A stretch of DNA of 64,000 nt, from assembly GCA_019038645.1 (NCBI GenBank), contig JAHOYT010000022.1:998-64997 (forward strand), read 5' to 3'. Both the position numbers and the translations under genes were made by a program. Below the pieces are notes generated by a model. The model had not been told where the DNA came from, made no database searches, and worked only from the letters and a program-made list of their open reading frames with translations. Positions within the stretch are counted from its first letter, which is position 1. Each line of letters begins with the position of its first letter. Source of the stretch: Bacteroidales bacterium. GTDB lineage: Bacteria > Bacteroidota > Bacteroidia > Bacteroidales > UBA12077. This document shows positions 1,326 through 32,076 of the stretch, in pieces.

Positions 1326-3965
1326 TTAAAATCTAATTTTTAAACCTATTGACCATGATCTTCCCCATCCATAATAAACTCTGGCTGTAGTATGATCGTG
1401 AGTACCACCATCAGTTGCATCTGAAATATATTCAGTATCTAACAGATTATTAACATTACCAAATAATGTTGCGTTCATATCAGAAACTTTGAAATTATAG
1501 CGTAAGTTCATGTCAATTAGGCTATAAGCAGGCATTTCCCATGAATCAGGATTTGTATCGCCCTCTTGAGTTCCTCTGCCTAAAATATCAAAATCAGCAA
1601 AAAGATTATCATAGTAATTATAATCAGCACCTATTTTTAAGCCCTTTAATAATTCATAATCAACACCTAGAGCCATAGTCAATTGTGCAGCATCACCAAC
1701 ACGAACATCCTTAACATATAAGTCAATAGTTGCAACCTCTACCTGGTTTTCATCAAATACTCCAACATCTTCTATATCATCCAGCCATCTCCAGTCACCT
1801 ACTGAAACAAAACCGCTAACCTGAAGTCCTTCTAATGGTTGAGCAACAAAGTCTGCTTCAACTCCCATATGAGTAGCATCAACACCTAAGATATTGGCTA
1901 TATAATATGTTCTGTCACCAGTTACCGGGTCATCCTGTGAAATTGATTTTGTAAATGTTTTATCCTTCCAGTTAGTGTAATATGCATTTACGTTTGCAGT
2001 AATAATTCCGGATCTGTAACCATATCCTACTTCAGCACTTAATATTTTTTCATTTTCAGCCTGATCATTAATAAGGTTTATATAGTTAAGAAAAACAGCA
2101 TCAAAATCCGGCTGACGCTGAAAATAACCTGCATTAAAGAATACATTATGGTTTTCGGTTAGATTATAGTTAGCACCACCCTTAACCATGAAACCAAGGA
2201 AATGTACCCAATCACTTTTCTGTCCGTTCATTGCTTGATCAAATTTAACCTGACCAATATCATCTACAATAGACTGTTCAAGATCGCCACTGGCATCTGC
2301 TTCGATTTCTGCAATATAATCATCGGTAAAATAGTTGAAATAATCTACTCTTTGATATGATTTGTCAGAAACAGAAAGAGAAACGAAGGATGCGAGTTTA
2401 TCTAATTTGTATTCAGCCTGACCAAACAGACCTGCCCAAGCTACATGTCCATCGTTATAATAAGCAATTTTATCACCTACATCAACAACTTTGGTAGTAT
2501 TGTTATAATCAACGTCATCAACATAAAATTCACCGCCTAAAAGATCAAGAACTTCACGATAATGTTCTCCTTTATAATAACGGCCATCAACGCCTAATAA
2601 TACATCTAAATTGCCAAGATCTTTGTTAAATGAAGTCAACAATCCGTACCAGTTGTGATTATTATTAGATGATCTCATTATTGATTCTGAACCATCAACT
2701 CCACCATCAGCAATATTTTCATCAACAATACGATCAAAATCAATTTGACCTTCTCTTAAGTAAGTGTAAAACTTTGAAGTGTTACCATAATTTCCTGTTC
2801 CACCACCAGTACCAATAGATGCATAAATTGCAGTTGTCATACTTGTATTTTCATCCATTGTCCAAAAATGGTTTAATATTGCTTGTGGCTTGTGGTAAAA
2901 GTTCTTTCTCAGATAATAAACTTCTCCATTTTTATAACCCCAGTCAGCATTATATCTTATTCCTTCTTCCTTGAACTTCTCAATTGATTGCTCAGAAGTT
3001 CTCTGACCATGCCATTGAGGTGCTCCGAAAAGAGAAAAAGCTACAGTATGATTATCGTTAACTCTTTTAGAAATATTCATAAAATATGAATATGATACAA
3101 ATTCTGTAGCGTCAACATAACCGTCTCCTTCTGCTTTTGCCACAGAAATTGTAGCAGCCCAGTCACTTTCACTTAACCCAGTTGATAATGTAAAACCGAA
3201 TTTGTTATAACCATCAGCACCAACTGTTGAAAATGCACTTCCGCCAGTTTTTGCATCCGTGGTTTTTGTAAGGATATTTAATGTACCACCTAATGAAGGT
3301 ACAGCCATCTTAGATGCTCCAAGACCTCTTTGCACCTGCATAGAACGTGTAACATCTGCTAAACCAGCCCAGTTTGACCAGTATACCCATCCGTTTTCCA
3401 TATCATTTACTGGCACACCATTAATCATAGTAGCCGTATTTCTTTGGTCGAAACCACGAATATTTATTCTTGAATCACCAAAACCTCCACCTTGCTTTGT
3501 TGCATAAACACCCGGGGTTGATTTTAATATTTCAGGATATTCCTGTGTTCCTAATTTCTCAGCAATCTGCTGAGGTTTAATTGTTGACAGTGCAACAGGA
3601 GTTTCTCTCGCGATAGCAACTGATGCCACAACTCTAACTTCATTTAAGTTAATGGCGTCGGCTTCAAGAGCTATTTTACCAAGATCAAGATCTCCTGTAA
3701 CTGATAAATCTTTTACCTGTTCAAGATATCCAACATACGAGAAAATTAATTTTTGGTCTCCGGACGGAACAATAATATTAAAACTTCCATCCAATGCAGT
3801 TGCAGTACCTATTGTTGTACCATCTACAACAATTGATGCACCAATAAGTGCCTCGTTGGAATTTGCATCAACGAGAATACCTGTAACTTTTGACTGGCCG
3901 AATGATGCAAGACTTACAAGCATCAGCGCCACAATTAAAAATTTACTTTTAAAGATTTTCATCAT
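1326..3965 (-). CDS. TonB-dependent outer-membrane receptor with N-terminal carboxypeptidase-regulatory-like domain
   Basis: 879 aa with a signal peptide. CarboxypepD_reg-like segment: KVTGILVDANSNEALIGASIVVDGTTIGTATALDGSF. Plug motifs: PGVYATKQGGGFGDSRINIRGFDQRNTATMINGVPVND. Long beta-barrel ending in a terminal aromatic residue (GLKIRF). Confidence 0.9.
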   Translation of the reverse strand: MMKIFKSKFLIVALMLVSLASFGQSKVTGILVDANSNEALIGASIVVDGTTIGTATALDGSFNIIVPSGDQKLIFSYVGYLEQVKDLSVTGDLDLGKIALEADAINLNEVRVVASVAIARETPVALSTIKPQQIAEKLGTQEYPEILKSTPGVYATKQGGGFGDSRINIRGFDQRNTATMINGVPVNDMENGWVYWSNWAGLADVTRSMQVQRGLGASKMAVPSLGGTLNILTKTTDAKTGGSAFSTVGADGYNKFGFTLSTGLSESDWAATISVAKAEGDGYVDATEFVSYSYFMNISKRVNDNHTVAFSLFGAPQWHGQRTSEQSIEKFKEEGIRYNADWGYKNGEVYYLRKNFYHKPQAILNHFWTMDENTSMTTAIYASIGTGGGTGNYGNTSKFYTYLREGQIDFDRIVDENIADGGVDGSESIMRSSNNNHNWYGLLTSFNKDLGNLDVLLGVDGRYYKGEHYREVLDLLGGEFYVDDVDYNNTTKVVDVGDKIAYYNDGHVAWAGLFGQAEYKLDKLASFVSLSVSDKSYQRVDYFNYFTDDYIAEIEADASGDLEQSIVDDIGQVKFDQAMNGQKSDWVHFLGFMVKGGANYNLTENHNVFFNAGYFQRQPDFDAVFLNYINLINDQAENEKILSAEVGYGYRSGIITANVNAYYTNWKDKTFTKSISQDDPVTGDRTYYIANILGVDATHMGVEADFVAQPLEGLQVSGFVSVGDWRWLDDIEDVGVFDENQVEVATIDLYVKDVRVGDAAQLTMALGVDYELLKGLKIGADYNYYDNLFADFDILGRGTQEGDTNPDSWEMPAYSLIDMNLRYNFKVSDMNATLFGNVNNLLDTEYISDATDGGTHDHTTARVYYGWGRSWSIGLKIRF

Positions 3966-4249: not shown

Positions 4250-6616
4250 TTATCTGTAGTCATAATTGTAACCGTAACCATAACCATAATTATAGTTATA
4301 ACCTTTATTCTTAATATTAATGTCATTAATAATAAGATTAGTGTTTTTAATATTCTTTTTCTCTAAACTGTAGAATAAATGTGACAACATCTTTTTCCTG
4401 GAATAATTATGTCTAACTATGAAAACACTGGTGTCGGCAAATTTTTCAAGTAACAGGGCATCTGAAACTATACCTGTTGGGGGTGTGTCAAGAATTATAT
4501 AATCAAACTTTTTTCTTAGCTCTTCAAACAGAGCTTTGGTCTTTTCAGAAGCAATTAATTCTGATGGGTTTGGGGGGATGGGCCCGGTAGGTATCACTCT
4601 TAAATTTGGAATTTCTGTTTCAAAAATTATATCTTCCATGTTACAATTTCCGCTTAGAAACGTACTCAATCCCATCTCATTATGAAGATCCATTAATTTT
4701 GAAACAGAAGGCCTTCTTAAGTCAAAACTTAATAGGACAACCTTTTTTTGATATAACGCAAAACTCGTAGCCAAATTAATAGAAATAAAACTTTTCCCTT
4801 CCTCCATCATTGTTGAAGTAATCATAATCACGGGAGTCTTAATTTCTCCTAATACGTATTGGAAATTAGTACGTAGCGACCGGAAAGACTCTGCAATAAT
4901 AGAATTAGGAGAATTGTGTACAACCAGTGGATTTTTTTCTTTATTATGAATAATATTACCTAAAATGGGTTTGTCAATTATCTTTTCAACATCCGAAATA
5001 TCAACTATTTTGTCATTAAAATAATCATATAATAAAATACAACAAACAGGTAAACCCAGACCCATTATAATACCTAATAATAATATAACTTTTTTATTTG
5101 GAGAAACCGGATCGGGTTTAATTAATTTAGGATAATCAATGATTTCATTTTCAGGAAAAGTTGAAGCTTTTGCAATTTGTAGCTCAGACTTTTTTCTTAA
5201 TAAAAAAGTATATAAAGCATCCTGTAACTGAAACTCTCTTTCATAAGTAAACAGCATTCGCTGAGTTTCCGGGAGTGACTGTACTTCAATTGTCAACTTA
5301 TCTATTCTTTCATTTATATCATTAAGCGATATTTTTGCTCTGTCAATAGAATTCAGAATGTTTTCCAATAAAGTGTTTTTTTGGTTATCGATTTTCATTT
5401 TTACACTCTCTAAATACGGATTATCTTTTTTAGAGTTAACCATAATATCAACTTTTTCTGAATAAAGTCTGGTCAGCTCAATAATTAAATTATTAAGCAA
5501 CTGGTCGTCAATTCCCATAGATGAAGGGGCTATAACATCCTGTAGATCTTTACTGTCAGACAAATATTCCTGCAGATAAGTGTAGTATTTTTGCTTTAGA
5601 ATTAATTCTGCCTTTTGATTTTGAAGACTCTCCAGATTTTGATAAGCTTGTTGAGACTGAAAATCGATATTCATAACTTTTTGAGACGACCTGTAAGCCC
5701 CAAGGCGTTTTTCTGCACTTTTCAGTGAATCAGCAATGCTATTAATCTGACTATTAATAAATTCTATCGTATTAATTGCTATTTTATTCTTTTTCTCTAC
5801 TCCTCTGTTTAAATAAACATCCAACAACCTGTTTAAAAAATCAATTGATTTAGAAACATTCGTGCCATCATAAAATATTTTGATAACAGACGAATACTTT
5901 ATGTCTTCTATTTGTATTTTTTGAAATTCATTAGTAAGAGACTCTAAGGTTCTAAACTTAAATAAATAAATTTTTTCATTCTCAATTTTTGCTAATTCCT
6001 TGATTTTAAATTTAAAATAATCATTAGTAAAATAAACATCCTTATAAATAGTATCATCTATTTCAACATCAAACAACTCCTTAACAATTCTTTCTTCACT
6101 GTAGGAATAAACCAAACCATTAATTGCTGAAGACCAAACATGAAAATGTCCATTTTTAAGTTTTTGCAAATAAATATCAATTTCAACAAGTTGAACATGA
6201 GAAGAATCGTATTCTATAATAAATGGAGTTTCGTTATATATTTCATTAATTCTGTACTTTTCTTTCTCAAAATATGAAACAGAAAAATCAAGTTCCTTCA
6301 TTGTCCGTTCTGTAAGATGATAAGAGTTAAGAATCTCTATTTCATTTCTTAATTTATATTCAGACATTGAACTAAATGGGGACACTGCATTTTGTATAAT
6401 TGCATCCGGATCCATTAAAGATTGCTCATCTTTAATTAATAGTGAAGATTCTACCCTATAAACCGGTGAAGTAGTTTTTATTACAAAGAATGATACCAAT
6501 AATCCCAGTACAAGAGAAATTGGGAATACATACCAAAACCTTAAAAGCCTGTATATATAAGCTTTTAGGTCAATTGACTCTTCTTCAAAATTTTGAAATT
6601 GACTATTATTTACCAT
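4250..6616 (-). CDS. Polysaccharide co-polymerase / BY-tyrosine kinase (Wzc/GumC-like chain-length determinant)
   Basis: 788 aa. It has an N-terminal TM segment, a long coiled-coil periplasmic region and a second TM segment. The C-terminal P-loop ATPase carries Walker A (TSTMMEEGKSF) and a Walker B-like DTPP. The tail is tyrosine-rich (GYNYNYGYGYGYNYDYR). It lies immediately downstream of a Wza-like gene. Confidence 0.85.
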   Translation of the reverse strand: MVNNSQFQNFEEESIDLKAYIYRLLRFWYVFPISLVLGLLVSFFVIKTTSPVYRVESSLLIKDEQSLMDPDAIIQNAVSPFSSMSEYKLRNEIEILNSYHLTERTMKELDFSVSYFEKEKYRINEIYNETPFIIEYDSSHVQLVEIDIYLQKLKNGHFHVWSSAINGLVYSYSEERIVKELFDVEIDDTIYKDVYFTNDYFKFKIKELAKIENEKIYLFKFRTLESLTNEFQKIQIEDIKYSSVIKIFYDGTNVSKSIDFLNRLLDVYLNRGVEKKNKIAINTIEFINSQINSIADSLKSAEKRLGAYRSSQKVMNIDFQSQQAYQNLESLQNQKAELILKQKYYTYLQEYLSDSKDLQDVIAPSSMGIDDQLLNNLIIELTRLYSEKVDIMVNSKKDNPYLESVKMKIDNQKNTLLENILNSIDRAKISLNDINERIDKLTIEVQSLPETQRMLFTYEREFQLQDALYTFLLRKKSELQIAKASTFPENEIIDYPKLIKPDPVSPNKKVILLLGIIMGLGLPVCCILLYDYFNDKIVDISDVEKIIDKPILGNIIHNKEKNPLVVHNSPNSIIAESFRSLRTNFQYVLGEIKTPVIMITSTMMEEGKSFISINLATSFALYQKKVVLLSFDLRRPSVSKLMDLHNEMGLSTFLSGNCNMEDIIFETEIPNLRVIPTGPIPPNPSELIASEKTKALFEELRKKFDYIILDTPPTGIVSDALLLEKFADTSVFIVRHNYSRKKMLSHLFYSLEKKNIKNTNLIINDINIKNKGYNYNYGYGYGYNYDYR

Positions 6617-6653
6617 ATTCAGAAAATAACAATATAAACCCTAAAATAAATTA

Positions 6654-7430
6654 TTATTTAAATAATGCTACTACAATTGCTGCAGTCGAAATTGTTGATA
6701 AAAAAATTGAATATGGGAAATTATCAAATGCAAATGATTTGCTTTTTAATGGTTCAATATAAACAACATCATTGGGCATTAAATAAAACTGATCAGATTG
6801 TAATACGCCATTATCAGTTAAATCTAAATAATGCATTTCTGAACCGGTTAATGTCTGCCGAACAAGTTTAACCTTTTTAAGGTTTCCAAAGTTATTAGTT
6901 CCACCAGCCTGAGCAATTGCCTGCAATATATTAATTTGTTTATTTTTAATAATAAAAGTACCGGCACTTACAACTTCTCCAAGTACAGAAACCCTGTAAT
7001 TTACCAACTTAACCACCACGGTTGCTTCTTTAAAATACTCATTTACTGTCTTTTGAAGCAAGTCGTTAACTTCTTTAACGGTCATCCCTTTAACGTATAC
7101 TTTATCAATAAATGAAAAGTTAATATAACCATCTTCTTCAATTCTATAACTATTCAAATTTTGATACGTTGCAGTCATAGGGTTAGGAAAATCTGTTTGA
7201 AATAATCGACTTGTTTTTTGATCAACACTGTGTACATTTATATACAGTTGATCTCCTGGTTGCAAATTATAAACAGTATTTCTGTTATTTAGAAATCCCG
7301 AAGAAATATCTTCTACTGATTTTTCCTGCAACAACTGTACTTTTTTCTGTGAAACACATGATGAAAATAGGAAAGCCACTATTACAAATCCTGTAATAAG
7401 TTTAAGGGTATAATTCGCTCTTGTTTTCAT
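6654..7430 (-). CDS. wza: Polysaccharide export outer-membrane protein (Wza family, Poly_export + SLBB)
   Basis: 258 aa. Lipoprotein-like signal (FSSC), the Poly_export signature YNLQPGDQLYINV, and an SLBB-like segment (VSVLGEV..AGTF). It lies upstream of the Wzc-like gene. Confidence 0.85.
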   Translation of the reverse strand: MKTRANYTLKLITGFVIVAFLFSSCVSQKKVQLLQEKSVEDISSGFLNNRNTVYNLQPGDQLYINVHSVDQKTSRLFQTDFPNPMTATYQNLNSYRIEEDGYINFSFIDKVYVKGMTVKEVNDLLQKTVNEYFKEATVVVKLVNYRVSVLGEVVSAGTFIIKNKQINILQAIAQAGGTNNFGNLKKVKLVRQTLTGSEMHYLDLTDNGVLQSDQFYLMPNDVVYIEPLKSKSFAFDNFPYSIFLSTISTAAIVVALFK

Positions 7431-9657: not shown

Positions 9658-10959
9658 TCAATCTATAAAGTTCAAAATTTTTAATGTTGCACCCCTGTTA
9701 TTATTTACATAATCGGCAGCAGTTTTTCCAATAAACACTGCATTCTCCAAATTATCAGTTAAATGTTCTATTTTATCTTTTAAGGCTTCATGTCCTGAAA
9801 CTGAACAAGCTCCTCCCAAATTTATCAGGTCAACGGCTTCCTGAAATTTCTTGTAATTTGGCCCAAACAACAAAGGCACACCAAAGGTTGCTGCCTCCAA
9901 GGTATTATGTATTCCTTTTCCAAATCCGCCACCGATATATGCTATATCACCATAGTTATAAAGTGATGAAAGCATTCCAATACTATCAATTATTAATACC
10001 TGAGCAGTGCTAATATTTTCACTATTTGCATCAGAATATTTTAGTGTTTTTAGATTTGGTAGTATCAGCTTAGTGATCCGTACAATATTTTCATGATGTA
10101 TTTCATGAGGAGCAATTATGAGCTTTAATTTATTATTACTTTCATTAAAATACCTTAATAAAATTTCCTCGTCAGGTTTCCAGGTACTTCCGGCAACCAG
10201 AACCAGACTTTTGTCTTTGAATTTCTCAATCAGGGGCAATTTTTTGGAATTTTCGGCTATCGAATAAACCCTGTCGAACCGGGTATCTCCTGTAACACTT
10301 ACATTGTTTAAATTTATTCCGGCCAGTAATCTTTTGGATTCATCATTTTGAACAAAAAAATGCTTAAAATTCCTTAACAATTCTTCGGATTTACGGCCAT
10401 ACTTTTTGAAAAAACGTTGTTCCTTTCTAAAAATACCAGAAATCAGATAAAGCGGAATTTCCCTTTTGCCAATTTCCTTAATAAAATAAAACCAAAATTC
10501 ATACTTCACAAAAAATACAATGGAAGGATTTACAATATTTAAAAAACGTTTTGCATTCTTTGGAGTATCCAACGGAAGGTAAAATATATAATCTGCATTT
10601 TCATATCTCTTTCTTATTTCATAGCCCGACGGAGAATAAAAAGTTAGAAGTATTTTATATTTTACATATTTTTCTTTAAACGACTCAATCACAGGCCTTC
10701 CCTGCTCAAATTCTCCGAGCGAAGCGCAATGAAACCATGCAATTTTACTTTCAGAATTTATTTCTTGTTTAAGCTTTCTGAAAATCCCTTTTCTCCCTTT
10801 GATCCAAAAACGTGCTTTTTCATTAAAAACAGAAGCAATCGCAATTAAAACGAAATATATTCTTATACCAAAAAGATAAAAAATGGTCATAAATTGTAAA
10901 TTGAAATACAACAACAAATTTAATAGTCTGGAATCGTTTTTAATAAAATTTCTGTTCAT
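9658..10959 (-). CDS. waaA: 3-deoxy-D-manno-octulosonic acid (Kdo) transferase
   Basis: Contains WFHCASLGEFEQGRPVIE and a C-terminal GGSF/GGHN-like region (GGGFGKGIHNTLEAATFGVPLLFGPN), typical of KdtA/WaaA. The true start is probably the internal Met at 10890 (MTIFYLFGIRIYF...), which gives about 410 aa. Confidence 0.9.
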   Translation of the reverse strand: MNRNFIKNDSRLLNLLLYFNLQFMTIFYLFGIRIYFVLIAIASVFNEKARFWIKGRKGIFRKLKQEINSESKIAWFHCASLGEFEQGRPVIESFKEKYVKYKILLTFYSPSGYEIRKRYENADYIFYLPLDTPKNAKRFLNIVNPSIVFFVKYEFWFYFIKEIGKREIPLYLISGIFRKEQRFFKKYGRKSEELLRNFKHFFVQNDESKRLLAGINLNNVSVTGDTRFDRVYSIAENSKKLPLIEKFKDKSLVLVAGSTWKPDEEILLRYFNESNNKLKLIIAPHEIHHENIVRITKLILPNLKTLKYSDANSENISTAQVLIIDSIGMLSSLYNYGDIAYIGGGFGKGIHNTLEAATFGVPLLFGPNYKKFQEAVDLINLGGACSVSGHEALKDKIEHLTDNLENAVFIGKTAADYVNNNRGATLKILNFID

Positions 10960-11109
10960 TAATTACAAAAAACAACTTTACCCCTGATTTTCTGAACCTT
11001 ACACGACCACTTTCTTATATTTTAAACAAAAAAAGAGTGTTTACATTGAAAAAAATCTAATATTTTTTAACATTTCCCTTGTTTTCTAAAGATTTTTTAT
11101 ACTTTTAGG

Positions 11110-11188
11110 CGTCAATTAAGAAATTTCTTGATACCCTAATCCTAAAATTTAAACCCAAAGGTCTTCACAAAGAAGGCCTTTTTGTTTT
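11110..11188 (+). ncRNA. Candidate small RNA or 5' leader ending at the orphan terminator (speculative)
   Basis: A near-consensus -7 box TActTTTa lies at 11100-11107, with cTTG 18 nt upstream (11078-11081). These would start a ~75-80 nt transcript that contains the 12-nt palindrome AAGAAATTTCTT (11118-11129) and ends at the terminator, 53 nt before the ORF at 11241. Confidence 0.2.
11157..11188 (+). terminator. Orphan intrinsic-terminator-like hairpin in a divergent intergenic region
   Basis: 10-bp stem AAAGGTCTTC / GAAGGCCTTT (one G-U pair), 5-nt loop ACAAA, followed by TTGTTTT. There is no + strand gene upstream, because waaA is divergently oriented. Confidence 0.5.
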
Positions 11189-11240
11189 ATAACATTTCGG
11201 TTCTAAATTTCAACATTTCACAATTATTTCCGTTCTTTAA

Positions 11241-14200
11241 TTGCTTATATTTAGATTAGTTAAATTATCTGTTTTGCAAAAAGCAATTATCACTATATTA
11301 TTTATTCTTTTTGGCCTGATTGGAAAAACCCAGATTACGGGAAATTTGCGTACAAAATCAATAACTCTACCTGACGATACTATCTTCGTTGACACATTAA
11401 GTATTGTACCAGGCTCGGAAATAATTTTTGATAACAATAAAAAAATAATACCTGATACACTTTATAGTTTTGACCATTTACAGGGAATATTGATACTTCC
11501 TGATTCGATCAGGGCAAATAATTTTGCATATCCCTTAGTTATTTCGTACCGTGTTTTTCCTGTCAACTTTTCTGAGCCATGGTATCATCGCAAAAAAGAA
11601 GAAACGATAATTGTCGGTCCTGTTTTAGCATATCCCGACAATAAAAAATATAATTACAGGGATAACATTTTAAACGACAACCAGCTGGACAAGAGGGGAA
11701 GTATAGCACGTGGAATAACTGTAGGAAACAATCAGAATGCTGTTATAAATTCAAATCTCAATATGCAAATTTCGGGAAAATTGAGCAATGACCTGTATAT
11801 TCTGGCTGCAATTTCAGATGAAAATATCCCGATACAAGCTGATGGTAATTCACAACAAATTCAGGATTTTGATAAAGTTTTTATCAAGTTATACAATAAC
11901 AAAACCAGCCTGATTGCCGGGGATTTTGAAATAAACAAGCCCACAGGACATTTTATGAATCTTAACAGAAAAGTCCAGGGAGGATTATTGGAAACATCTT
12001 TTGATAATAAAAAAAACATCCGTGCCAGTTTAAAATCAACAATAAGCGGAGCTATTTCTAAAGGGAAATACTGCCGGCAAACTTTTCAGGGACAGGAAGG
12101 TAATCAGGGACCATATAAATTAAAAGGCTGTGAAAATGAACAGTATATTATTGTGCTGTCGGGAACAGAAAAAGTTTATATAAATGGACAAGTTCTGACA
12201 AGAGGCAAAGATTATGACTATGTTATTGACTACAATACCGGTGAAATTACTTTTACGGCAGGCAAGCCAGTTACAAAAGATTCCAGAATTGCAGTAGAAT
12301 TTGAATATTCGGAAAGGAGTTATTCAAGATACATGATTTACAGTACTAACGAGTTCAAAACCAAAAACGGTAATTTCTGGTTAAATATTTATTCTGAAAA
12401 GGACAGCAAAAATCAGCCAATAAATCAGGATTTAACAAATGAACAAAAACAATATCTTTCCGAGTCGGGAGACAGTATCGAAAATGCTTATGTGCTAAAT
12501 GTTGATAGTACTGAATTTAAAAACGATTATGTGCTTTATGAAAAAAAGGATACGCTGGTTAACGGGATCGTGTATGGATTTTATCAATATTCAACAAATC
12601 CGGAAAAGGCTGTTTACTATCCGGGGTTTAGTCAGGTTGGTGAAAACAAAGGTAATTATGTTCAGATACAAAATTCGGCTAATGGAAGAGTTTTTGAGTG
12701 GGTTGCTCCGGCAGGAGCTATTCCTCAGGGAAACTATGAGCCTGTTCGTTTATTAATTTCTCCGAAAAAACATCAAATGATAAGCTTTGGGGGAAATATA
12801 AATTTAAATCCGACCAGCTTAACAAATTTTGAATTTGCTCTAAGCAATTATGACATAAATACTTTTTCGGAAAGAGACGCATCTGACAATATTGGATATG
12901 CACTAAAACTGGCTTTTCAAAAATCCCTCTTAAATTCAGACACCACATTGAATTTGTTAAAAACCAATATTAACTGGCAACTGCTTAATAAAAATTTTAA
13001 AGAAATTGAAAGATTCAGGACAGTTGAGTTTGAAAGAGACTGGAATATTATAAAGCCATTCTCTAATGATGAGCATTTAGCTGAATTGGGAATCCTGTAC
13101 AGGCGTAAAAAAACTATTTTAAGCAACTATACATTTAGCTTGCTAACTGATAATAATGAGTATACAGCTTATAAAAACAAACTTGATGGTTCACTAAACA
13201 AATCGGGTTATTCTGTGTATTTAAACTCCGGAATTCTTAATACAAACTCAGGAATTTATGAAACACAATTCATTAGGTATCTGGCAGGTATTTCAAAATC
13301 GTTCAGCGTCCTGGAATCGGGAATAGAACATGAAATGGAACAAAACAAATGGAATAATACTGAAAATGATAGTTTAGTGCCTAATAGTTTTAGCTTTACT
13401 TCATATCGGTTTTTTATTAAAAGTCCGGATTCTCTGATTAATAAATATTCTGCCAGCTATACCTTGCGAAGCGATTTCCTGCCTGTTAACAATAGTCTTA
13501 TGCAAAGTACGGAATCGGAAGATTTTCAAATTGGTTTTGCATTATTAAAAAATCCGTCTAATATTTTAAAAACGAATATCAACTATCGAAAACTTCTATA
13601 TACCGATACAACAATTATTAAAGGCCAACAGGAAAACACACTTACGGGGCGAATTAATTACAATTTCAGGCTTTTTAAAGGAGCAATTTCGTCATCCGTA
13701 TTTTATGAAGCTGGAACTGGTCTTGAGCCTAAAAGAGAATTTAGCTATTTAAAAGTGGCAACAGGACAAGGAATTTATACATGGGAAGACTACAATAATA
13801 ACGGCATTGCAGAGCTTGACGAATTTGAAGTTGCACAATTCCAGGATCAGGCAAGTTATATAAGGATATATTCACCCGGAACTGAATACATAAAAACGTA
13901 TAAAAATGAGTTTAGCCAGATTCTCAGTATCAGACCAGCAGTAATATGGAAAAATAAAACCGGACTTAGAAAAATTTTATCAAGGTTTTCAAATAATCTG
14001 GCATGGCAAATAAATCAAAAAACGACTGATGAAATGCCTGAACACAGTCTTAATCCTTTTTATACATCAAACGACAGCACAATAATTAATACAAATCAAA
14101 ATATCAGAAATACATTTTCTTTTAACAGAATTAGTTCAAAATTTGGCATTGATTATATTTATCAGAAAAACATTAATAGTATTTTGCTTTCAAATGGTTT

Positions 14201-22519: not shown

Positions 22520-22870
22520 TTATTTTAATTCCTTTAAAGGGTCCCAAAAATACTTTTCAAAATTGACTATTTTATCATTTTCAATTTTAATACCCTCATT
22601 TTCCAGAAGTTGTTTCATTGAATTTGAATTTCCGAAATGATGTTTTCCTGTAAGAACTCCGGACCGATTTACAACTCTGTGAGCAGGAACATATTCACTC
22701 TGGTGATGCGAATCGTTCATTGCCCAACCCACTACTCTGGCAGATTGTGCTGTTCCGAGATATTTTGCTATTGCACCATAACTCGTTACCCTTCCCTTTG
22801 GAATTTGACGGGCAAGATTGTAAACCATGTTAAAAAAACCTTCTTTATTCTTCGTCTTTTGGTTCTTCAA
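22520..22870 (-). CDS. Alkyltransferase-like (ATL) protein: MGMT-family DNA-binding domain lacking the acceptor cysteine
   Basis: Shows the MGMT DNA-binding-domain pattern (IPKGRVTSYGAIAKYLG..SARVVGWAM). The active-site PCHRV motif reads PAHRVVNRSG, with the Ala codon at 22682-22684. The annotated start overlaps the trmB 3' end by 26 nt; the internal Met at 22828 (MVYNLARQ) may be the real start. Confidence 0.8.
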   Translation of the reverse strand: MKNQKTKNKEGFFNMVYNLARQIPKGRVTSYGAIAKYLGTAQSARVVGWAMNDSHHQSEYVPAHRVVNRSGVLTGKHHFGNSNSMKQLLENEGIKIENDKIVNFEKYFWDPLKELK

Positions 22871-26688: not shown

Positions 26689-27879
26689 ATGTATTCTATC
26701 GACAATTATAATTTTTCAGGGAAAAAAGTACTAATGCGGGTAGACTTTAACGTCCCGTTAAACAATAAGCTTGAAATAACAGATGATACTAGAATTATTA
26801 CAGCAATTCCTACGATTCAGAAAATTATTACTGAAGGAGGATCAATAATTCTGCTTACACATTTAGGAAGACCAAAGGGGAAATTTAACGAAAAAATGTC
26901 TCTAAAAATTATTCTGCCTCATTTAAAAAAAATTCTTGGTCGTGAAATAAAATTTGCACCTGATTGTATTGGTATAAAAGCGGAAAAATTAGCTAAAAAC
27001 TTAAATCCTGGTGAAATTCTATTATTGGAAAATTTGAGATTTTATAAAGAAGAAACAGATGCTGATGAAGGTTTTGCACGGCACCTTGCCGGTCTTGGTG
27101 ATGTATATGTAAATAATGCGTTTGGTACTGCACACAGAGCACATGCCTCTACGTATACCATTGCAAAACATTTTCCTAAAAAATGCATGTTTGGTTATCT
27201 GGTCGAAAGTGAAATAAATAATATTGATAAAATTCTGCATCAGCCCTTGCATCCATTTACAGCAATTCTTGGAGGTTCAAAAGTATCCAGTAAAATTCAT
27301 ATTATTGAAGCTTTACTTGAAAAAGTTGACAATCTGATTATAGCCGGTGGAATTGGATTTACTTTTGCAAAAGCAATGGGAGGAAAAATAGGAAGCTCGT
27401 TGGTGGAAGATGCCTACCTGGATTTTGCACGTCATATTATTAGCGAAGCAAAAAATAATAATGTCAAATTATACTTACCTACGGATTGTGTTATTGCAAA
27501 TGAATTTAGAAATAGTGCAAAAATTGATCATTGCAACATCAATGAAATACCCGATGGATGGATGGGACTTGACATTGGAATTAAATCTGCAAATCGATTT
27601 GCAGAAGTAATCGAAAATTCTGAAAAAATACTTTGGAACGGCCCGATTGGTGTTTTTGAAATGCCAAGTTTTTCAATGGGAACGCTAAAAACGGCAATGT
27701 CTGTAGCCCGTGCTACAGATAAAGGAGCATTTTCCCTAATTGGTGGCGGTGATTCAATTGCTGCCGTAAATAAATATAGCTTAGCACATAAAATTAGTTA
27801 TATATCAACCGCCGGAGGTGCGTTACTGGAATACCTTGAAGGAAAAGAACTGCCAAGTATTAAAGCAATTAAGCAAAAT
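26689..27879 (+). repeat. PGK unit 1 of the intragenic tandem duplication
   Basis: It aligns end to end with 27880-29070. I estimate about 70-75% protein identity by eye, with clear DNA divergence, so it is not an assembly duplicate. Confidence 0.9.
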
Positions 27880-29073
27880 TTGACAATTGACAGATACAAT
27901 TTCGAAGGTAAAAAAGTTCTGATGCGGGTTGATTTCAATGTGCCAATGAACGAAAACAGAGAAATTACTGATGCCACAAGAATTATAACTGCTTTACCTA
28001 CTGTACGGAAAATATTAGCTGAAGGTGGTTCTGTTATATTTTTAACTCATTTAGGCAGGCCAAAAGGAAAATCTGATGAAAATCTTTCGTTAAAACATAT
28101 TCTACCGTTTTTATCAAAAGCGCTTGATAAAAAAGTGAAATTTGCGGCTAACTGCATTGGAGAAGAAGCTATAATTGCAGCTACTGTGCTCCAACCCGGA
28201 GAATGCCTGTTACTTGAAAATCTTAGATTTCATAAAGAAGAAACAGATGCAGATGAAAGCTTTGCGAAACAATTAGCCGAACTTGGAGATACTTATGTTT
28301 TTAACGCTTTCGGAACTGCACACAGAGCGCATGCTTCAACGTATACGATTAACAAATTTTTTCCTGAAGATAAAATGTTTGGTTATCTGGTGGAAAATGA
28401 AATTAACAATATTGATAAAGTTATTAAGAAAGCCAAAGCGCCGTTTACTGCCATACTTGGCGGATCAAAAGTATCTACTAAAATACAAATCATTGATGCA
28501 TTAATTGAAAAAGTTGACAATTTGATTATTGCCGGTGGAATTGCATTTACTTTTGCTAAGGCTATGGGTGGTAAAGTTGGAAATTCTCTTATAGAAGATG
28601 ATTTTATTGATGTTGCTAAAAAGATTATTACAAAAGCGCAAGAAAACAGCGTAAACCTTTATCTGCCTACGGATTGTATTATTGCGGATGAATTTAATGA
28701 TGATGCTAATATTGAGCATTGCGAAATAAATAAGATAAAAGATGGCTGGATGGGACTGGATATTGGAATAAAATCAGCCAACGAATTTACTGAAGTAATT
28801 GAAAACTCTTCTACTATACTTTGGAACGGACCAATTGGTGTATTTGAAATGTCGAATTTTTCGATGGGAACTTTAAAAATTGCCATGGCTGTTGCCCGCG
28901 CTACAGATAAAGGAGCTTTCTCGCTAATTGGTGGTGGAGACTCAATTGCTGCCGTTAACAAATATAGTCTTGCTTATAAAATAAGCTATATCTCTACTGC
29001 CGGTGGTGCTTTGCTTGAATATATTGAAGGAAAGGAATTGCCTGCGCTTAAAGCTATAAAGGAAGATATATAA
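26689..29073 (+). CDS. pgk: Tandem-fused double phosphoglycerate kinase (PGK-PGK, two complete units in one ORF)
   Basis: 794 aa. Residues 1-397 and 398-794 each form a full PGK. Both carry RVDFNVP, THLGRPKG, LLENLRF.KEE, NAFGTAHRAHAS, AILGGSKVS.KI, WNGPIGVFE, GGGDS and STAGGALLEY. There is no stop codon or frameshift at the junction (27871-27890, ...KQN|LTIDRYNF). Confidence 0.95.
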   Translation: MYSIDNYNFSGKKVLMRVDFNVPLNNKLEITDDTRIITAIPTIQKIITEGGSIILLTHLGRPKGKFNEKMSLKIILPHLKKILGREIKFAPDCIGIKAEKLAKNLNPGEILLLENLRFYKEETDADEGFARHLAGLGDVYVNNAFGTAHRAHASTYTIAKHFPKKCMFGYLVESEINNIDKILHQPLHPFTAILGGSKVSSKIHIIEALLEKVDNLIIAGGIGFTFAKAMGGKIGSSLVEDAYLDFARHIISEAKNNNVKLYLPTDCVIANEFRNSAKIDHCNINEIPDGWMGLDIGIKSANRFAEVIENSEKILWNGPIGVFEMPSFSMGTLKTAMSVARATDKGAFSLIGGGDSIAAVNKYSLAHKISYISTAGGALLEYLEGKELPSIKAIKQNLTIDRYNFEGKKVLMRVDFNVPMNENREITDATRIITALPTVRKILAEGGSVIFLTHLGRPKGKSDENLSLKHILPFLSKALDKKVKFAANCIGEEAIIAATVLQPGECLLLENLRFHKEETDADESFAKQLAELGDTYVFNAFGTAHRAHASTYTINKFFPEDKMFGYLVENEINNIDKVIKKAKAPFTAILGGSKVSTKIQIIDALIEKVDNLIIAGGIAFTFAKAMGGKVGNSLIEDDFIDVAKKIITKAQENSVNLYLPTDCIIADEFNDDANIEHCEINKIKDGWMGLDIGIKSANEFTEVIENSSTILWNGPIGVFEMSNFSMGTLKIAMAVARATDKGAFSLIGGGDSIAAVNKYSLAYKISYISTAGGALLEYIEGKELPALKAIKEDI
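27880..29070 (+). repeat. PGK unit 2 of the intragenic tandem duplication
   Basis: It begins with a TTG codon (27880-27882) at the position equivalent to codon 2 of unit 1. It ends ...LKAIKEDI followed by a stop. Confidence 0.9.
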
Positions 29074-29095
29074 GAACCATATTAAATCGTTCAAA

Positions 29096-29134
29096 TTAGG
29101 ATCACGAATTAAAGTGATTCTAATTTTATTGCTT
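29096..29134 (+). terminator. Candidate intrinsic terminator after the PGK-PGK gene
   Basis: 10-bp stem TTAGGATCAC / GTGATTCTAA (one G-U pair), 8-nt loop, followed by TTTTATTGCTT. Confidence 0.45.
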
Positions 29135-29191: not shown

Positions 29192-29197
29192 AGGAGG
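29192..29197 (+). promoter_or_regulatory. Canonical Shine-Dalgarno sequence AGGAGG, 5 nt upstream of the ATG at 29203
   Basis: The sequence reads CAGGAGGTAAAAATG. None of the other ~43 start regions in this window has a comparable purine-rich SD. Confidence 0.6.
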
Positions 29198-29202
29198 TAA
29201 AA

Positions 29203-30489
29203 ATGATTGACAAATATAATATTCCATTAATACAGGATGCAGATCTTAACGGTAAGGTAGTGTTGGTTCGTGTTGATCATAATGTGGTAAAAAAAGGGAT
29301 TATTCATGATCCGTACAGAATTGATGCTACCATCGGAACATTGTATCATATTAATGCAAAAGGAGGCAAAATAATTTTAATGTCGCATGTTGGACGGCCA
29401 AGGGACAAAAAAACCGGAGACATTACAATCGGAAAGGACACATCGGTAGAACCAATTGTTGAATACCTCAGAAATAAACTTCATATCAGCATGAAAATTC
29501 CTGATTTTTATCCTCATGAAAATAAAGGATACATTGGAATTGAAACATCAATAAATCACTCAATCCGCGAATTGAAAGAAGGTAAAATAGACGGAATTTA
29601 CTTACCAAATACACGTTGGTTTCAGGGCGAAGAGTCAAAAGATTCTGATATGGATCGTTTTGCAAATCAGCTTGCCGGATTAGCAGACATATTTGTTAAT
29701 GACGCATTCGGATCGTGGCAGCCTCATGCTTCTACTATTGGAGTAAATAAATATTTACCGTCTTATGCAGGATTCTTAATGCAAAAGGAAATTGAAAACC
29801 TTGAGCGAATTTATAGCCCACAATCCCCTTTTATTGCTGTTGTGGCAGGTTCAAAATTTGATACAAAGATTGATTCTTTATATGCTTTGATTAAAAAAGC
29901 TGATTATCTGGTTTTAGGAGGTGTTATTTATAATGCATATTTATATGCAAAATATGGTATCGAGATAAAAGGTATTTCACAAGATGATGTAGCTCATGCA
30001 AAAAAATTTGTAGAATTCAGCGAACAACATCCCGGCAAATTAATTGAGCTTCCGTTTATTATTGAATCAGACACACTGGAAGGAAAATTTGAAGGGAAAA
30101 ATCGTGTCCATAATATTCATGAATTAAAGCCCGGAACAAAACTAAATTATGTTCTTGATGTAGCAAAAGAATCATTTTACGAAGATAAAATTCATAAAAT
30201 TTTCTCAACGGCGCGAACAGTATTTGTTAATGCTGTAATGGGTTTCACGCCACATTTCAACGAAGGAACAATTGCCCTGGATGAATTAATTGATGAAAAT
30301 ATTGAGGCAGTAAAACTTTACGGCGGCGGTGATACAATGCAGGAACTAAAAAGATTATTACCGGGATTATACATCGTTGCTCTCGACAGCCCTAAGTACT
30401 ACATCTTTACAGGTGGGGGAGCTGTTTTAAAAGCAATTCAGGAAGGAACAACTTTAGGAATTGAGCCCGTAAAGGTTTTAACAAAATAA
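29203..30489 (+). CDS. Divergent phosphoglycerate-kinase-fold protein (PGK-like kinase, substrate uncertain)
   Basis: 428 aa. It retains RVDHNV, SHVGRPRD, NTRWFQGEE, VAGSKFDTKI, GGGDTMQE and FTGGGAVL. AFGTAHRAH is replaced by AFGSWQPH, and WNGPxGVFE by VNAVMGFTPHFNE. Confidence 0.75.
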   Translation: MIDKYNIPLIQDADLNGKVVLVRVDHNVVKKGIIHDPYRIDATIGTLYHINAKGGKIILMSHVGRPRDKKTGDITIGKDTSVEPIVEYLRNKLHISMKIPDFYPHENKGYIGIETSINHSIRELKEGKIDGIYLPNTRWFQGEESKDSDMDRFANQLAGLADIFVNDAFGSWQPHASTIGVNKYLPSYAGFLMQKEIENLERIYSPQSPFIAVVAGSKFDTKIDSLYALIKKADYLVLGGVIYNAYLYAKYGIEIKGISQDDVAHAKKFVEFSEQHPGKLIELPFIIESDTLEGKFEGKNRVHNIHELKPGTKLNYVLDVAKESFYEDKIHKIFSTARTVFVNAVMGFTPHFNEGTIALDELIDENIEAVKLYGGGDTMQELKRLLPGLYIVALDSPKYYIFTGGGAVLKAIQEGTTLGIEPVKVLTK

Positions 30490-30738: not shown

Positions 30739-32076
30739 ATGAAAGCTTTTAAGGCATACGACATTCGGGGAATATATAACGAAGATTTTAATAAAGATGA
30801 TGCTTATAAAATAGGGTATTTCTTACCCGAACTTTTACAGGCTGATAATGTTTTAGTTGGCAGGGATGTACGAATTTCATCTGATGAAATATTTGAATAT
30901 CTTGCTCAGGGAATTGTCGATAGCGGCGCAAACGTTTATAACATTGGCATCTCTACGACTCCAATGGTATATTACATAACTGCAAAACATAAATTTGCTG
31001 CTTCGGTGCAAATTACTGCATCGCACAATTCACGTGAATATAACGGAATGAAAATTTCAAAATCGAATGCTTTGCCTGTTGGTTTTGATACAGGCTTAAA
31101 AGAGCTTCTCGAAATGATACAAACCCGTGAAGTTGTGATTGCCGATAAAAAAGGGAAAATAGTTGATTATAAAGTTAAAGGCGAATATGTTGAATTTTTA
31201 AAGACTTATGTTCAGGATTATTCTGACCTTAAAATGGCCGTAGATTGTTCAAACGGCATGGCCGGATTACTAATTAAAAAACTATTGGGGAGAAAACCTG
31301 TTTACTTATTTGAGGAACTTGACGGCAGTTTCCCAAATCATGAACCAAATCCTTTAATTGAAGAAAATGTTGCTGATCTTAAAAAAACAGTATTAAGTGA
31401 AAAATGCGATATCGGAGTTATTTTCGATGGCGATGCCGATCGGGTAATGTTTGTTGACGAAAAAGGACAGTTTATTTCTCCTGATTTAATTATTGGGCTT
31501 ATGGCTCATTATTTTCTTGAAAAAGAAAAAGGTGCTGTTCTTGAAGATATTCGTACATCGAAAGCTGTTAAAAAGTATGTTGAAAAGCTGGGAGGCAAAA
31601 TGCATACCTGGCGCGTGGGAAGAGCTTATGCTGCGCCAAAATTAAGAGAGATTAAAGGTATTTATGGTGGTGAGCTGGCTGGTCATTATTATTTTCGCGA
31701 TTTCTTTTATTCCGATTCAGGTATTTTAGCGGCATTAATCGTATTAAATCTTCTTGTACGATTTAAAAAAGAAGGAAAAACCATGTCGGAGCTAATTTCT
31801 GATATCAGCAAATATGCAAATTCCGGCGAAATCAATTTTAAAATTGTACAGAAACAGGAAGCTATGGAGGCTTTAAAAGATTATTTTGTTGCCGAAGAAG
31901 AGCCTATGGAAATTCTTGATTTTGATGGCTATCGTCTTGAATTTAAGGATTGGTGGTTTAATGTTCGCCCTTCGAATACTGAACCTTATTTGCGATTATT
32001 AGCCGAAGCTGATAATGAGGAAATCCTTAAAACAAAGTTAGCAGATATTAAAACGATTCTTAAGAAGTTTAAATAA
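30739..32076 (+). CDS. Phosphomannomutase / phosphoglucomutase (alpha-D-phosphohexomutase family)
   Basis: 445 aa. Active-site serine loop TASHNSREYNGMK, metal loop FDGDADR, sugar loop GGELAGH, and the C-terminal phosphate-binding motif RPSNTEPYLR. Confidence 0.9.
   Translation: MKAFKAYDIRGIYNEDFNKDDAYKIGYFLPELLQADNVLVGRDVRISSDEIFEYLAQGIVDSGANVYNIGISTTPMVYYITAKHKFAASVQITASHNSREYNGMKISKSNALPVGFDTGLKELLEMIQTREVVIADKKGKIVDYKVKGEYVEFLKTYVQDYSDLKMAVDCSNGMAGLLIKKLLGRKPVYLFEELDGSFPNHEPNPLIEENVADLKKTVLSEKCDIGVIFDGDADRVMFVDEKGQFISPDLIIGLMAHYFLEKEKGAVLEDIRTSKAVKKYVEKLGGKMHTWRVGRAYAAPKLREIKGIYGGELAGHYYFRDFFYSDSGILAALIVLNLLVRFKKEGKTMSELISDISKYANSGEINFKIVQKQEAMEALKDYFVAEEEPMEILDFDGYRLEFKDWWFNVRPSNTEPYLRLLAEADNEEILKTKLADIKTILKKFK

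Follow-up and report, generated by a model that had tools for sequence, protein, structure and literature searches.

A PGK4-type phosphoglycerate kinase-like gene beside a tandem phosphoglycerate kinase fusion in a Bacteroidales genome

Phosphoglycerate kinase (PGK) is regarded as one universal glycolytic enzyme that is inherited vertically. The present analysis concerns a gene for a divergent PGK-like protein carried by a 64,000-nucleotide stretch of contig JAHOYT010000022.1 from a Bacteroidales bacterium (assembly GCA_019038645.1), referred to as the window, in which the gene follows a tandem fusion of two canonical PGK units. The closest described proteins belong to PGK4, a subfamily of non-canonical PGK-like proteins in prasinophytes and streptophytes that was named by Foflonker & Blaby-Haas (2020) and whose function was stated to be unknown (PMC7826186). 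The same study reports a PGK4A-GAPDH3-ArsJ gene neighbourhood in Mamiellophyceae, which is not universal, notes PGK4 homologues also in genomes without the ArsJ route, finds plant and algal PGK4 coexisting with canonical PGK, and calls the PGK4 gene alga-specific; a large prokaryotic membership is not described in it (PMC7826186). Our literature search found this paper to be the sole relevant one; it turned up no study of a divergent PGK clade in bacteria, no characterized PGK4 member and no later paper characterizing the subfamily.

The roles of the ligand positions in canonical PGK were taken from two sources. Asp23 and Asn25 hold the 2-hydroxyl of 3-phosphoglycerate (3-PG), Arg38 binds its carboxylate and takes part in catalysis, and His62, Arg65 and Arg122 hold the 3-phosphate, while Lys215 is catalytic and Lys219 and Asn336 bind the nucleotide phosphates (PMC7729029, PMC2441801). 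Bases are held through a non-specific hydrophobic clamp, and the hydrogen bonds from Glu343 to the ribose in human PGK boost catalysis without being essential, as in the E343A variant Km(ADP) goes up ~10-fold and kcat/Km goes down ~270-fold, yet turnover persists (PMC2441801).

The gene under study is an open reading frame (ORF) for 428 residues with an ATG start at 29203..30489 on the forward strand, as given by the ORF list of the window. Its product matches PF00162 over practically the full length of the model (276.7 bits, E = 3.8e-82, cutoff 27; residues 10-413 against model positions 1-377 of 379) and carries no other domain, which answers the profile search proposed in the initial annotation; a canonical PGK unit scores ~500 bits against the same profile, and the single canonical PGK of a related locus (L046) scores 507. 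BLASTP identity to the two canonical window units is 29.0% and 29.5%, in line with the 25-30% first estimated by eye, and the nearest solved structure is Thermotoga maritima PGK, 1vpe (E = 4e-45, HMMER). The sole NCBIfam match, to the bifunctional PGK/TIM equivalog PRK13962, reaches 202 bits, below its cutoff of 883, and no NCBIfam model names the PGK4 subfamily. An AF2 model built from a 38-sequence alignment has a mean pLDDT of 92.6 and a pTM of 0.88, and when it was compared with the PDB by Foldseek the top 50 matches were all PGKs (best E 1.9e-30, TM-score 0.70-0.87); the protein is thus modelled with the two-domain, Rossmann-like PGK fold. All of the PGK motifs that had been quoted for it occur in the translation, including RVDHNV (residues 23-28), SHVGRPRD (61-68), NTRW..GEE (136-144) and FTGGGAVL (402-409).

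Motifs and tree group the window protein with algal and plant PGK4 proteins, and on these sequence grounds we therefore assign it to PGK4 as a bacterial member; the assignment was made through search, motifs and tree, independently of the accession list in PMC7826186. An exhaustive HMMER search over 1.84 billion 50%-cluster representatives returned few full-length members of the clade (56, 47, 43, 41 and 39% identity), followed by canonical PGKs at 32-38% identity and ~150 bits. Two of the 50%-cluster representatives are eukaryote-like, and a search seeded with one of them (P0128) retrieved proteins of Klebsormidium nitens, Physcomitrium, Marchantia, Ceratodon, Riccia and Adiantum, interleaved with proteins of Desulfosarcina, Thermodesulfobacteriota, WOR-3 and a Hodarchaeota-labelled metagenome-assembled genome (MAG). 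These plant, algal and prokaryotic proteins share NDAFGSWQPH, VAG(A/S)KxDTKI, FVNAVMG, GGGDT and FTGGG. Identity to the window protein is 53-57% for the streptophyte proteins (Klebsormidium, Physcomitrium, Marchantia) and 49-50% for those of prasinophyte type. The cluster headed by P0128 also contains P0286, which is encoded on marine contigs (L088/L089) together with the eukaryotic genes Fcf1, Nop16 and UBP; ~1 kb from it lies a gene for glyceraldehyde-3-phosphate dehydrogenase (GAPDH) whose best NCBIfam model is the ArsJ-associated NF033735, and adjoining this is a major facilitator superfamily transporter matching ArsJ (NF033734, 346 bits). This layout agrees with the one published for PGK4A of Mamiellophyceae, and the contig is that of a marine picoeukaryote, Mamiellophyceae-like by comparison with PMC7826186.

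The clade is far from confined to algae and plants. When 5.8 billion proteins were searched by word index, more than 100 matches at 76-94% identity were returned, all annotated 'phosphoglycerate kinase' and labelled as Bacteroidales, Desulfobacterales, Desulfobulbaceae and an Altiarchaeales MAG. In a scan of GTDB with one genome per species, the full-length matches within the best 80 of 216 related stretches were 56-95% identical to the query, their hosts being Bacteroidales MAGs (from sediment and from horse or other gut), Spirochaetota/Leptospirales, Cloacimonadota, Desulfobacterales and Thermodesulfovibrionia. The subfamily is present in at least 80 species-level genomes, including those of Desulfobacterota and some archaeal-labelled MAGs. 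Neighbour-joining with canonical outgroups, among them both window units, recovered the clade as monophyletic in 100 of 100 bootstraps. The expectation of a distinct, unannotated PGK-like clade is thus borne out as to distinctness and falls as to the lack of a name, since PGK4 has already been described (PMC7826186); what appears to be new is the large prokaryotic membership, the name itself being known from the plant and algal literature. Pairs of clade members (n = 114) have a median identity of 57%, pairs of canonical PGKs (n = 94) one of 41%, and pairs across the two sets 32%.

Phyla are mixed within the clade: a Desulfobacterales copy is 80% identical to the query, nearer than some Bacteroidales copies at 72%, in whose loci the phosphohexomutase neighbour is nevertheless 84% identical, and this relationship therefore points to horizontal transfer of PGK4 between phyla. 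Carriage by mobile elements was ruled out within 72,556 plasmid and 50,697 phage records, in which tblastn found no PGK4 and only canonical PGKs of at most 34% identity. The archaeal-labelled copies, one on a Hodarchaeota-labelled MAG (P0400) and one, 78% identical to the query, on an Altiarchaeales-labelled MAG (L002; coordinates 1704..1946 and 10001..11287) whose contig also bears two 5S rRNA genes and DUF7343 helix-turn-helix genes, reflect either inter-domain transfer or mis-binning. Cloacimonadota MAGs carry tandem PGK4 paralogs, ~73% and ~60% identical to the query, both of which have the complete signature and every catalytic residue (L045, 6609..9302; L057, 2577..5217; L058, 7995..10618; L059, 484..3099; L082, 7950..10597). 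The ~60% copies form a tree lineage of their own, and the single-copy Cloacimonadaceae genes form another.

Residue conservation was tabulated from a MAFFT alignment of 114 non-redundant clade members, 94 canonical PGK representatives, the two window units and human PGK1. Of the seven canonical 3-PG ligands, six are retained in 98-100% of the clade (Asp23 and Asn25 98%, Arg38 and His62 99%, Arg65 and Arg122 100%), so that the 3-PG site, which the initial annotation had called rewritten, is better described as modified. The machinery of phosphoryl transfer is likewise intact, as had been proposed: Lys215 and Lys219 are present in 100% of the clade, Asn336 in 99% and Gly372-Thr375 in 97%, and the hinge Thr-Gly-Gly-Gly is found in 97-100%. 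Equivalent residues in the query are R39, K218, K222, N343, D377, T378, G374-376 and G404-406. K218 and K222 lie in VAGSKFDTKI (residues 214-223; 29842..29871, forward strand) and are invariant in the clade as well as in canonical PGK, and the phosphoryl-transfer loop GGGDT (residues 374-378; 30322..30336, forward strand), with the equivalents of the Mg/gamma-phosphate ligands Asp374 and Thr375, is conserved in 97% of the clade, the 3% shortfall being due to gaps in truncated sequences. Overall, from bacteria to land plants, conservation of the catalytic residues is 97-100%.

Against this background two segments are consistently altered, and both substitutions singled out in the initial annotation proved to be real and shared across the 114 members, not idiosyncratic to the window gene. 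At the start of helix 5, alignment to 1vpe by HMMER and the MAFFT alignment place AFGSWQPH (residues 168-175; 29704..29727, forward strand) on canonical AFGTAHRAH, with His169 and Arg170 replaced by Trp-Gln (Trp172 and Gln173 of the query), a one-residue deletion and a Pro after it; both basic residues are lost in 100% of the clade. The query therefore retains His62, Arg65 and Arg122 of the five-residue 3-phosphate basic patch and lacks His169 and Arg170. In the strand-J loop, canonical WNGPxGVFE corresponds to VNAVMGFTPHFNE (residues 342-354; 30226..30264, forward strand), in which Asn336 and Gly340 are kept. Here the query reads VNAVMGFTP, Trp335, Gly337 and Pro338 having become Val, Ala and Val, changes found in 92-99% of the clade; Pro338 is replaced in 99% and Glu343 is deleted in 100%, which leaves neither Pro338 nor Glu343 in the ribose subsite. 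Among the 94 canonical PGKs, by comparison, His169, Arg170 and Glu343 occur in 98-100% (Arg170 in 99%, Glu343 in 98%) and Pro338 in 90%. A further 19 positions are invariant in a clade-specific manner, including Pro135 (canonical Glu), Trp139, Asp220, Tyr243 and Phe402 (at the canonical hinge Ser392), and conserved inserts follow the Arg65 loop (DKKTG), precede the Arg122 strand and follow GGGDT. A change of Asp218 to Thr, considered as a companion of the Arg170 loss, was dropped, as canonical bacterial PGKs often have Thr or Ser at position 218 (Thr 49%, Asp 36%) and the change is not specific to the clade.

The reading that we favour, with about even confidence, is that the window protein would be an active, specialized kinase of 3-PG/1,3-bisphosphoglycerate (1,3-BPG) type with altered distal-phosphate and sugar subsites, and not a redundant copy. 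In such a scheme, PGK4 would transfer a phosphoryl group between a nucleoside di- or triphosphate and the carboxylate of 3-PG or a close analogue, and would make or consume an acyl phosphate such as 1,3-BPG. The substrate would be a 2-hydroxy acid with a distal anion, 3-PG or a near isostere, because six of the seven 3-PG ligands are conserved; the phosphate is probably still bound, because His62, Arg65 and Arg122 would otherwise be expected to drift. With Trp-Gln at 169/170 the distal phosphate would be gripped with one positive charge fewer, and with Glu343 deleted and Pro338 replaced by Val the nucleotide sugar would be held differently. Beside the housekeeping PGK-PGK fusion, PGK4 could thus serve as a second PGK of changed affinity, nucleotide preference or anion regulation, and it may supply 1,3-BPG to a dedicated partner, such as the ArsJ-type GAPDH on the marine picoeukaryote contig.

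Four lines of comparison favour 3-PG/1,3-BPG as the reactants. By analogy, the ArsJ-type GAPDH/ArsJ neighbourhood of the algae would keep PGK4 on the GAPDH/1,3-BPG axis; the Glu343-ribose bonds are dispensable in human PGK (PMC2441801); and algal PGK4A occupies, next to GAPDH3 and ArsJ, the position held in Chlorophyceae by the more canonical-like PGK3 (PMC7826186). Further, prokaryotic PGK4 repeatedly adjoins other pgk genes: in Bacteroidales the PGK-PGK fusion, at 25 loci or more, in L046 a lone canonical pgk, and in Cloacimonadota a second PGK4. Other observations weigh against this view. His169, Arg170 and Glu343 are missing from every clade member and Pro338 from nearly every one, and a change of ligand would give the same picture. 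Two canonical PGK active sites are already available to the organism, and a role as a plain isoenzyme needs a reason; coexistence with canonical PGK wherever checked and the unusually high conservation of the clade count against such a role. Finally, no GAPDH or ArsJ partner was found at the fetched prokaryotic loci by tblastn, and there is no conserved operon.

We regard as possible, and on balance doubtful, that PGK4 is not a 3-PG kinase but an acyl-phosphate-forming kinase for another 3-PG-like acid, or one using another phosphoryl donor. Candidate acceptors would be 2-hydroxy acids that carry, in place of a phosphate monoester, a bulkier or less charged distal group (for example a sulfonate, phosphodiester or arsenic-containing analogue), and the alternative donor would be one whose sugar is no free ribose. 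Anaerobic bacteria and some archaea would have such a reaction in common with green algae and early land plants; it would have spread horizontally and would be hidden under the 'phosphoglycerate kinase' label. It gains from the fixation of the His169/Arg170 and Glu343/Pro338 losses in ~99-100% of the 114 members vs 90-100% retention in canonical PGKs, from the 19 additional clade-specific positions, Pro135 and Phe402 among them, from a clade more conserved than housekeeping PGK, and from the presence of PGK4 always alongside canonical PGK where inspected (the window, the Bacteroidales chromosome OY762280 and L046, as well as plants and algae according to PMC7826186). However, with six of the seven 3-PG ligands and all nucleotide-phosphate ligands invariant, only a close look-alike of 3-PG could be accommodated, and the ribose hydrogen bonds are dispensable in human PGK (PMC2441801). 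Moreover, no neighbour across ~90 prokaryotic loci suggests another pathway, and the only informative neighbourhood, that of the algae, contains GAPDH. Of the proposal in the initial annotation that the enzyme acts on a different acceptor and is not redundant, the second half therefore holds, and the first finds no evidence identifying such a substrate.

The genomic context was compared by clustering all ORFs of 87 loci. Upstream, the tandem canonical PGK-PGK fusion of 794 residues (26689..29073, forward strand; two full PF00162 matches, 988 bits) has halves that are 74% identical to each other, and in the at least 25 related Bacteroidales loci with the same fusion-PGK4 arrangement the fusion ORF encodes 794-816 residues; PGK-PGK fusions of 795-797 residues also exist among the cluster representatives (P0141, P0142). 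Downstream lies an alpha-D-phosphohexomutase of PMM/PGM type (30739..32076, forward strand; PGM_PMM_I-IV domains, best NCBIfam PRK09542 at 382 bits, below cutoff), which directly follows PGK4 in 34 loci, some with a different upstream side, and is its steadiest Bacteroidales neighbour. In several Bacteroidales loci (L005/L007, 8223..9905; L031, L048, L049, L076) a gene for a secreted endonuclease I with a Por secretion tail lies 5' of PGK4, inserted between it and the PGK-PGK fusion or the fusion's former site; the fusion-PGK4 adjacency is therefore breakable, whereas the adjacency of PGK4 to the phosphohexomutase persists. Outside Bacteroidales no neighbour is conserved among the 87 clustered loci, and further loci from Desulfobacterota and other groups are likewise unrelated, with neighbours such as ispG, an Fe-hydrogenase-like gene, typA, S-adenosylhomocysteine hydrolase, regulators and secreted proteins. 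Conservation of context is thus real within Bacteroidales, for the phosphohexomutase and the fusion, and absent elsewhere, and inference of the role of PGK4 from an operon or context was rejected on this account.

The phosphohexomutase is a possible recipient of 1,3-BPG in Bacteroidales, as enzymes of its type require a phosphorylated activator. This activator is a hexose-1,6-bisphosphate; mammalian PGM2L1 makes glucose-1,6-bisphosphate with 1,3-BPG, and the sole route known in bacteria uses fructose-1,6-bisphosphate (PMC9426568, PMC11404074). By analogy with PGM2L1, 1,3-BPG made by PGK4 could conceivably prime the adjacent phosphohexomutase; the restriction of the PGK4-phosphohexomutase adjacency to Bacteroidales weakens this idea.

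The algal neighbourhood suggests another explanation, in which PGK4 is an arsenate-detoxification helper that works with an ArsJ-type GAPDH and keeps glyceraldehyde-3-phosphate and 3-PG cycling during export of 1-arseno-3-phosphoglycerate. In its favour are the position of the eukaryotic clade member P0286 next to ArsJ and an ArsJ-type GAPDH, as well as the same hypothesis, put forward for algal PGK3 and PGK4A, and an arsenate-sensitive Chlamydomonas pgk3 mutant, in PMC7826186. For the bacterial copies we consider it improbable: tblastn with the algal ArsJ and GAPDH gave no match in the 64-kb window or at any fetched prokaryotic locus, on which basis an arsenic link in prokaryotes was rejected, the mutant concerned PGK3, which belongs to another subfamily, and PGK4 homologues occur without the ArsJ route (PMC7826186). 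On the algal side, the prasinophyte-type PGK4A proteins (P0302, P0323, P0332, P0350) carry an insert rich in Cys (DGCGCVPxDGxC) and end in a CxxxxxCxC tail, both of which the bacterial members lack, and with the ArsJ/GAPDH neighbourhood in mind a metal-, arsenite- or redox-sensing role for them is conceivable.

Comparison by the Nei-Gojobori method with orthologues in related Bacteroidales (84-95% protein identity) gave dN/dS values of 0.021-0.053 for the PGK4 gene, 0.038-0.056 for the fusion PGK and 0.035-0.050 for the phosphohexomutase, and purifying selection on PGK4 is at least as strong as on its neighbours. A decaying or catalytically dead paralog resembling the trypanosomatid PGK-like proteins, to which a third PGK unit at the locus, with a Pfam score about half that of a canonical unit, might have pointed, is thus very hard to defend in view of an ORF that is intact at every locus examined, an omega of 0.02-0.05, catalytic residues that are 97-100% conserved and a confident AF2 model, all the more as PGKL proteins are without key catalytic residues (PMC7729029) that the PGK4 protein retains. 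The possibility that the gene is a relic under relaxed selection, raised at the outset as a potential refutation, and with it the pseudogene idea, was accordingly rejected on dN/dS and residue conservation.

With regard to expression, the gene is separated from the fusion by a terminator-like hairpin (29093..29126, forward strand; 13-bp stem, 8-nt loop and T-rich tail, a match to the consensus only), as the initial annotation had noted; the spacer between the fusion stop and the PGK4 ATG measures 129 nt. A Shine-Dalgarno (SD)-like AGGAGG (29192..29197, forward strand) ends 5 nt 5' of the start codon. Because it has its own ribosome-binding site and stands after the hairpin, the PGK4 gene is probably transcribed separately from the fusion. 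Use of SD sequences is rare in Bacteroidota, and among the 39 window ORFs of at least 150 residues just 2 show an SD core that reaches 5 nt. GGAGG is kept upstream of the PGK4 orthologue in four other loci (L008, L015, L031, L048), and the SD is conserved among Bacteroidales PGK4 copies that are 72-95% identical. This strong SD may be left over from a horizontal acquisition of the gene, or it may act as a special signal in translation. A riboswitch or RNA leader was ruled out for the gene by Rfam scans at gathering thresholds of the window and eight diverse loci, which returned tRNA and 5S rRNA only and no element upstream of PGK4.

A few less regular neighbours deserve mention. On the opposite strand, 5.7 kb upstream of PGK4, the window carries a TrmB-like Methyltransf_4 gene (PF02390; 22845..23543), and overlapping it on the same reverse strand is a gene for an MGMT-like DNA_binding_1 protein without the catalytic Cys (PAHRV, alkyltransferase-like (ATL); 22520..22870). 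In Cloacimonadota a tandem PGK4 pair is followed, after 19-20 nt, by a gene for a similar Cys-less protein with PWHRV (L057, 5238..5546; L058, 10637..10945). The three-way association of PGK4, ATL and TrmB may be due to chance. A metagenome contig from JGI (L091/L092) encodes a 489-residue Response_reg-PFK fusion (5837..7306, forward strand) two genes upstream of a PGK4 (P0374) that groups with the Desulfobacterota-type members.

Cumulatively, these findings describe a second, sharply delimited PGK lineage that is annotated identically everywhere, is more conserved than housekeeping PGK and appears to cross phyla and domains. The signature NDAFGSWQPH; FVNAVMG lets annotation pipelines split PGK4 from true pgk, and the prokaryotic members offer many readily expressed proteins for biochemical and crystallographic work. 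Should the substrate or donor differ, PGK4 would represent a new reaction in the metabolism of anaerobes and plants, unrecognized in central or stress metabolism; if PGK4 is a plain PGK, then Arg170 and Glu343 would be dispensable in a natural enzyme.

Of the known systems with which the window protein can be compared, the PGKL pseudoenzymes of trypanosomatids and diplonemids are likewise divergent extra paralogs but have lost substrate-binding and catalytic residues (PMC7729029), all of the catalytic ones being retained here. Chlamydomonas PGK3 resembles it as a non-housekeeping paralog that holds in Chlorophyceae the position of the Mamiellophyceae PGK4A, but differs by description in belonging to a subfamily related to actinobacterial, chlamydial and deinococcal PGKs and in the arsenate sensitivity of its mutant (PMC7826186). 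Canonical PGK (EC 2.7.2.3; T. maritima 1VPE, Geobacillus stearothermophilus 1PHP, human PGK1) has the same fold (TM-score 0.79-0.87) and shares with PGK4 the phosphoryl-transfer residues, the hinge glycines, the carboxylate and 2-hydroxyl ligands and His62/Arg65/Arg122; PGK4 is set apart by an identity of 28-35%, the changes at His169/Arg170, Glu343 and Trp335/Gly337/Pro338, the three inserts and the replacement of Ser392 by Phe. The PGK4B proteins of land plants (e.g. rice LOC_Os10g30550), sister to PGK4A, have a PGK-like domain fused to a TrmB-like methyltransferase (PMC7826186); the window protein is set apart from this description in having no PF02390 fusion, and the separate TrmB-like gene 5.7 kb upstream may be coincidence. 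Algal and streptophyte PGK4/PGK4A fall in the same clade and bear the same signature motifs as the window protein, although the PGK4A genes of Mamiellophyceae adjoin ArsJ and GAPDH3, neighbours that tblastn did not find in the window or at the fetched prokaryotic loci.

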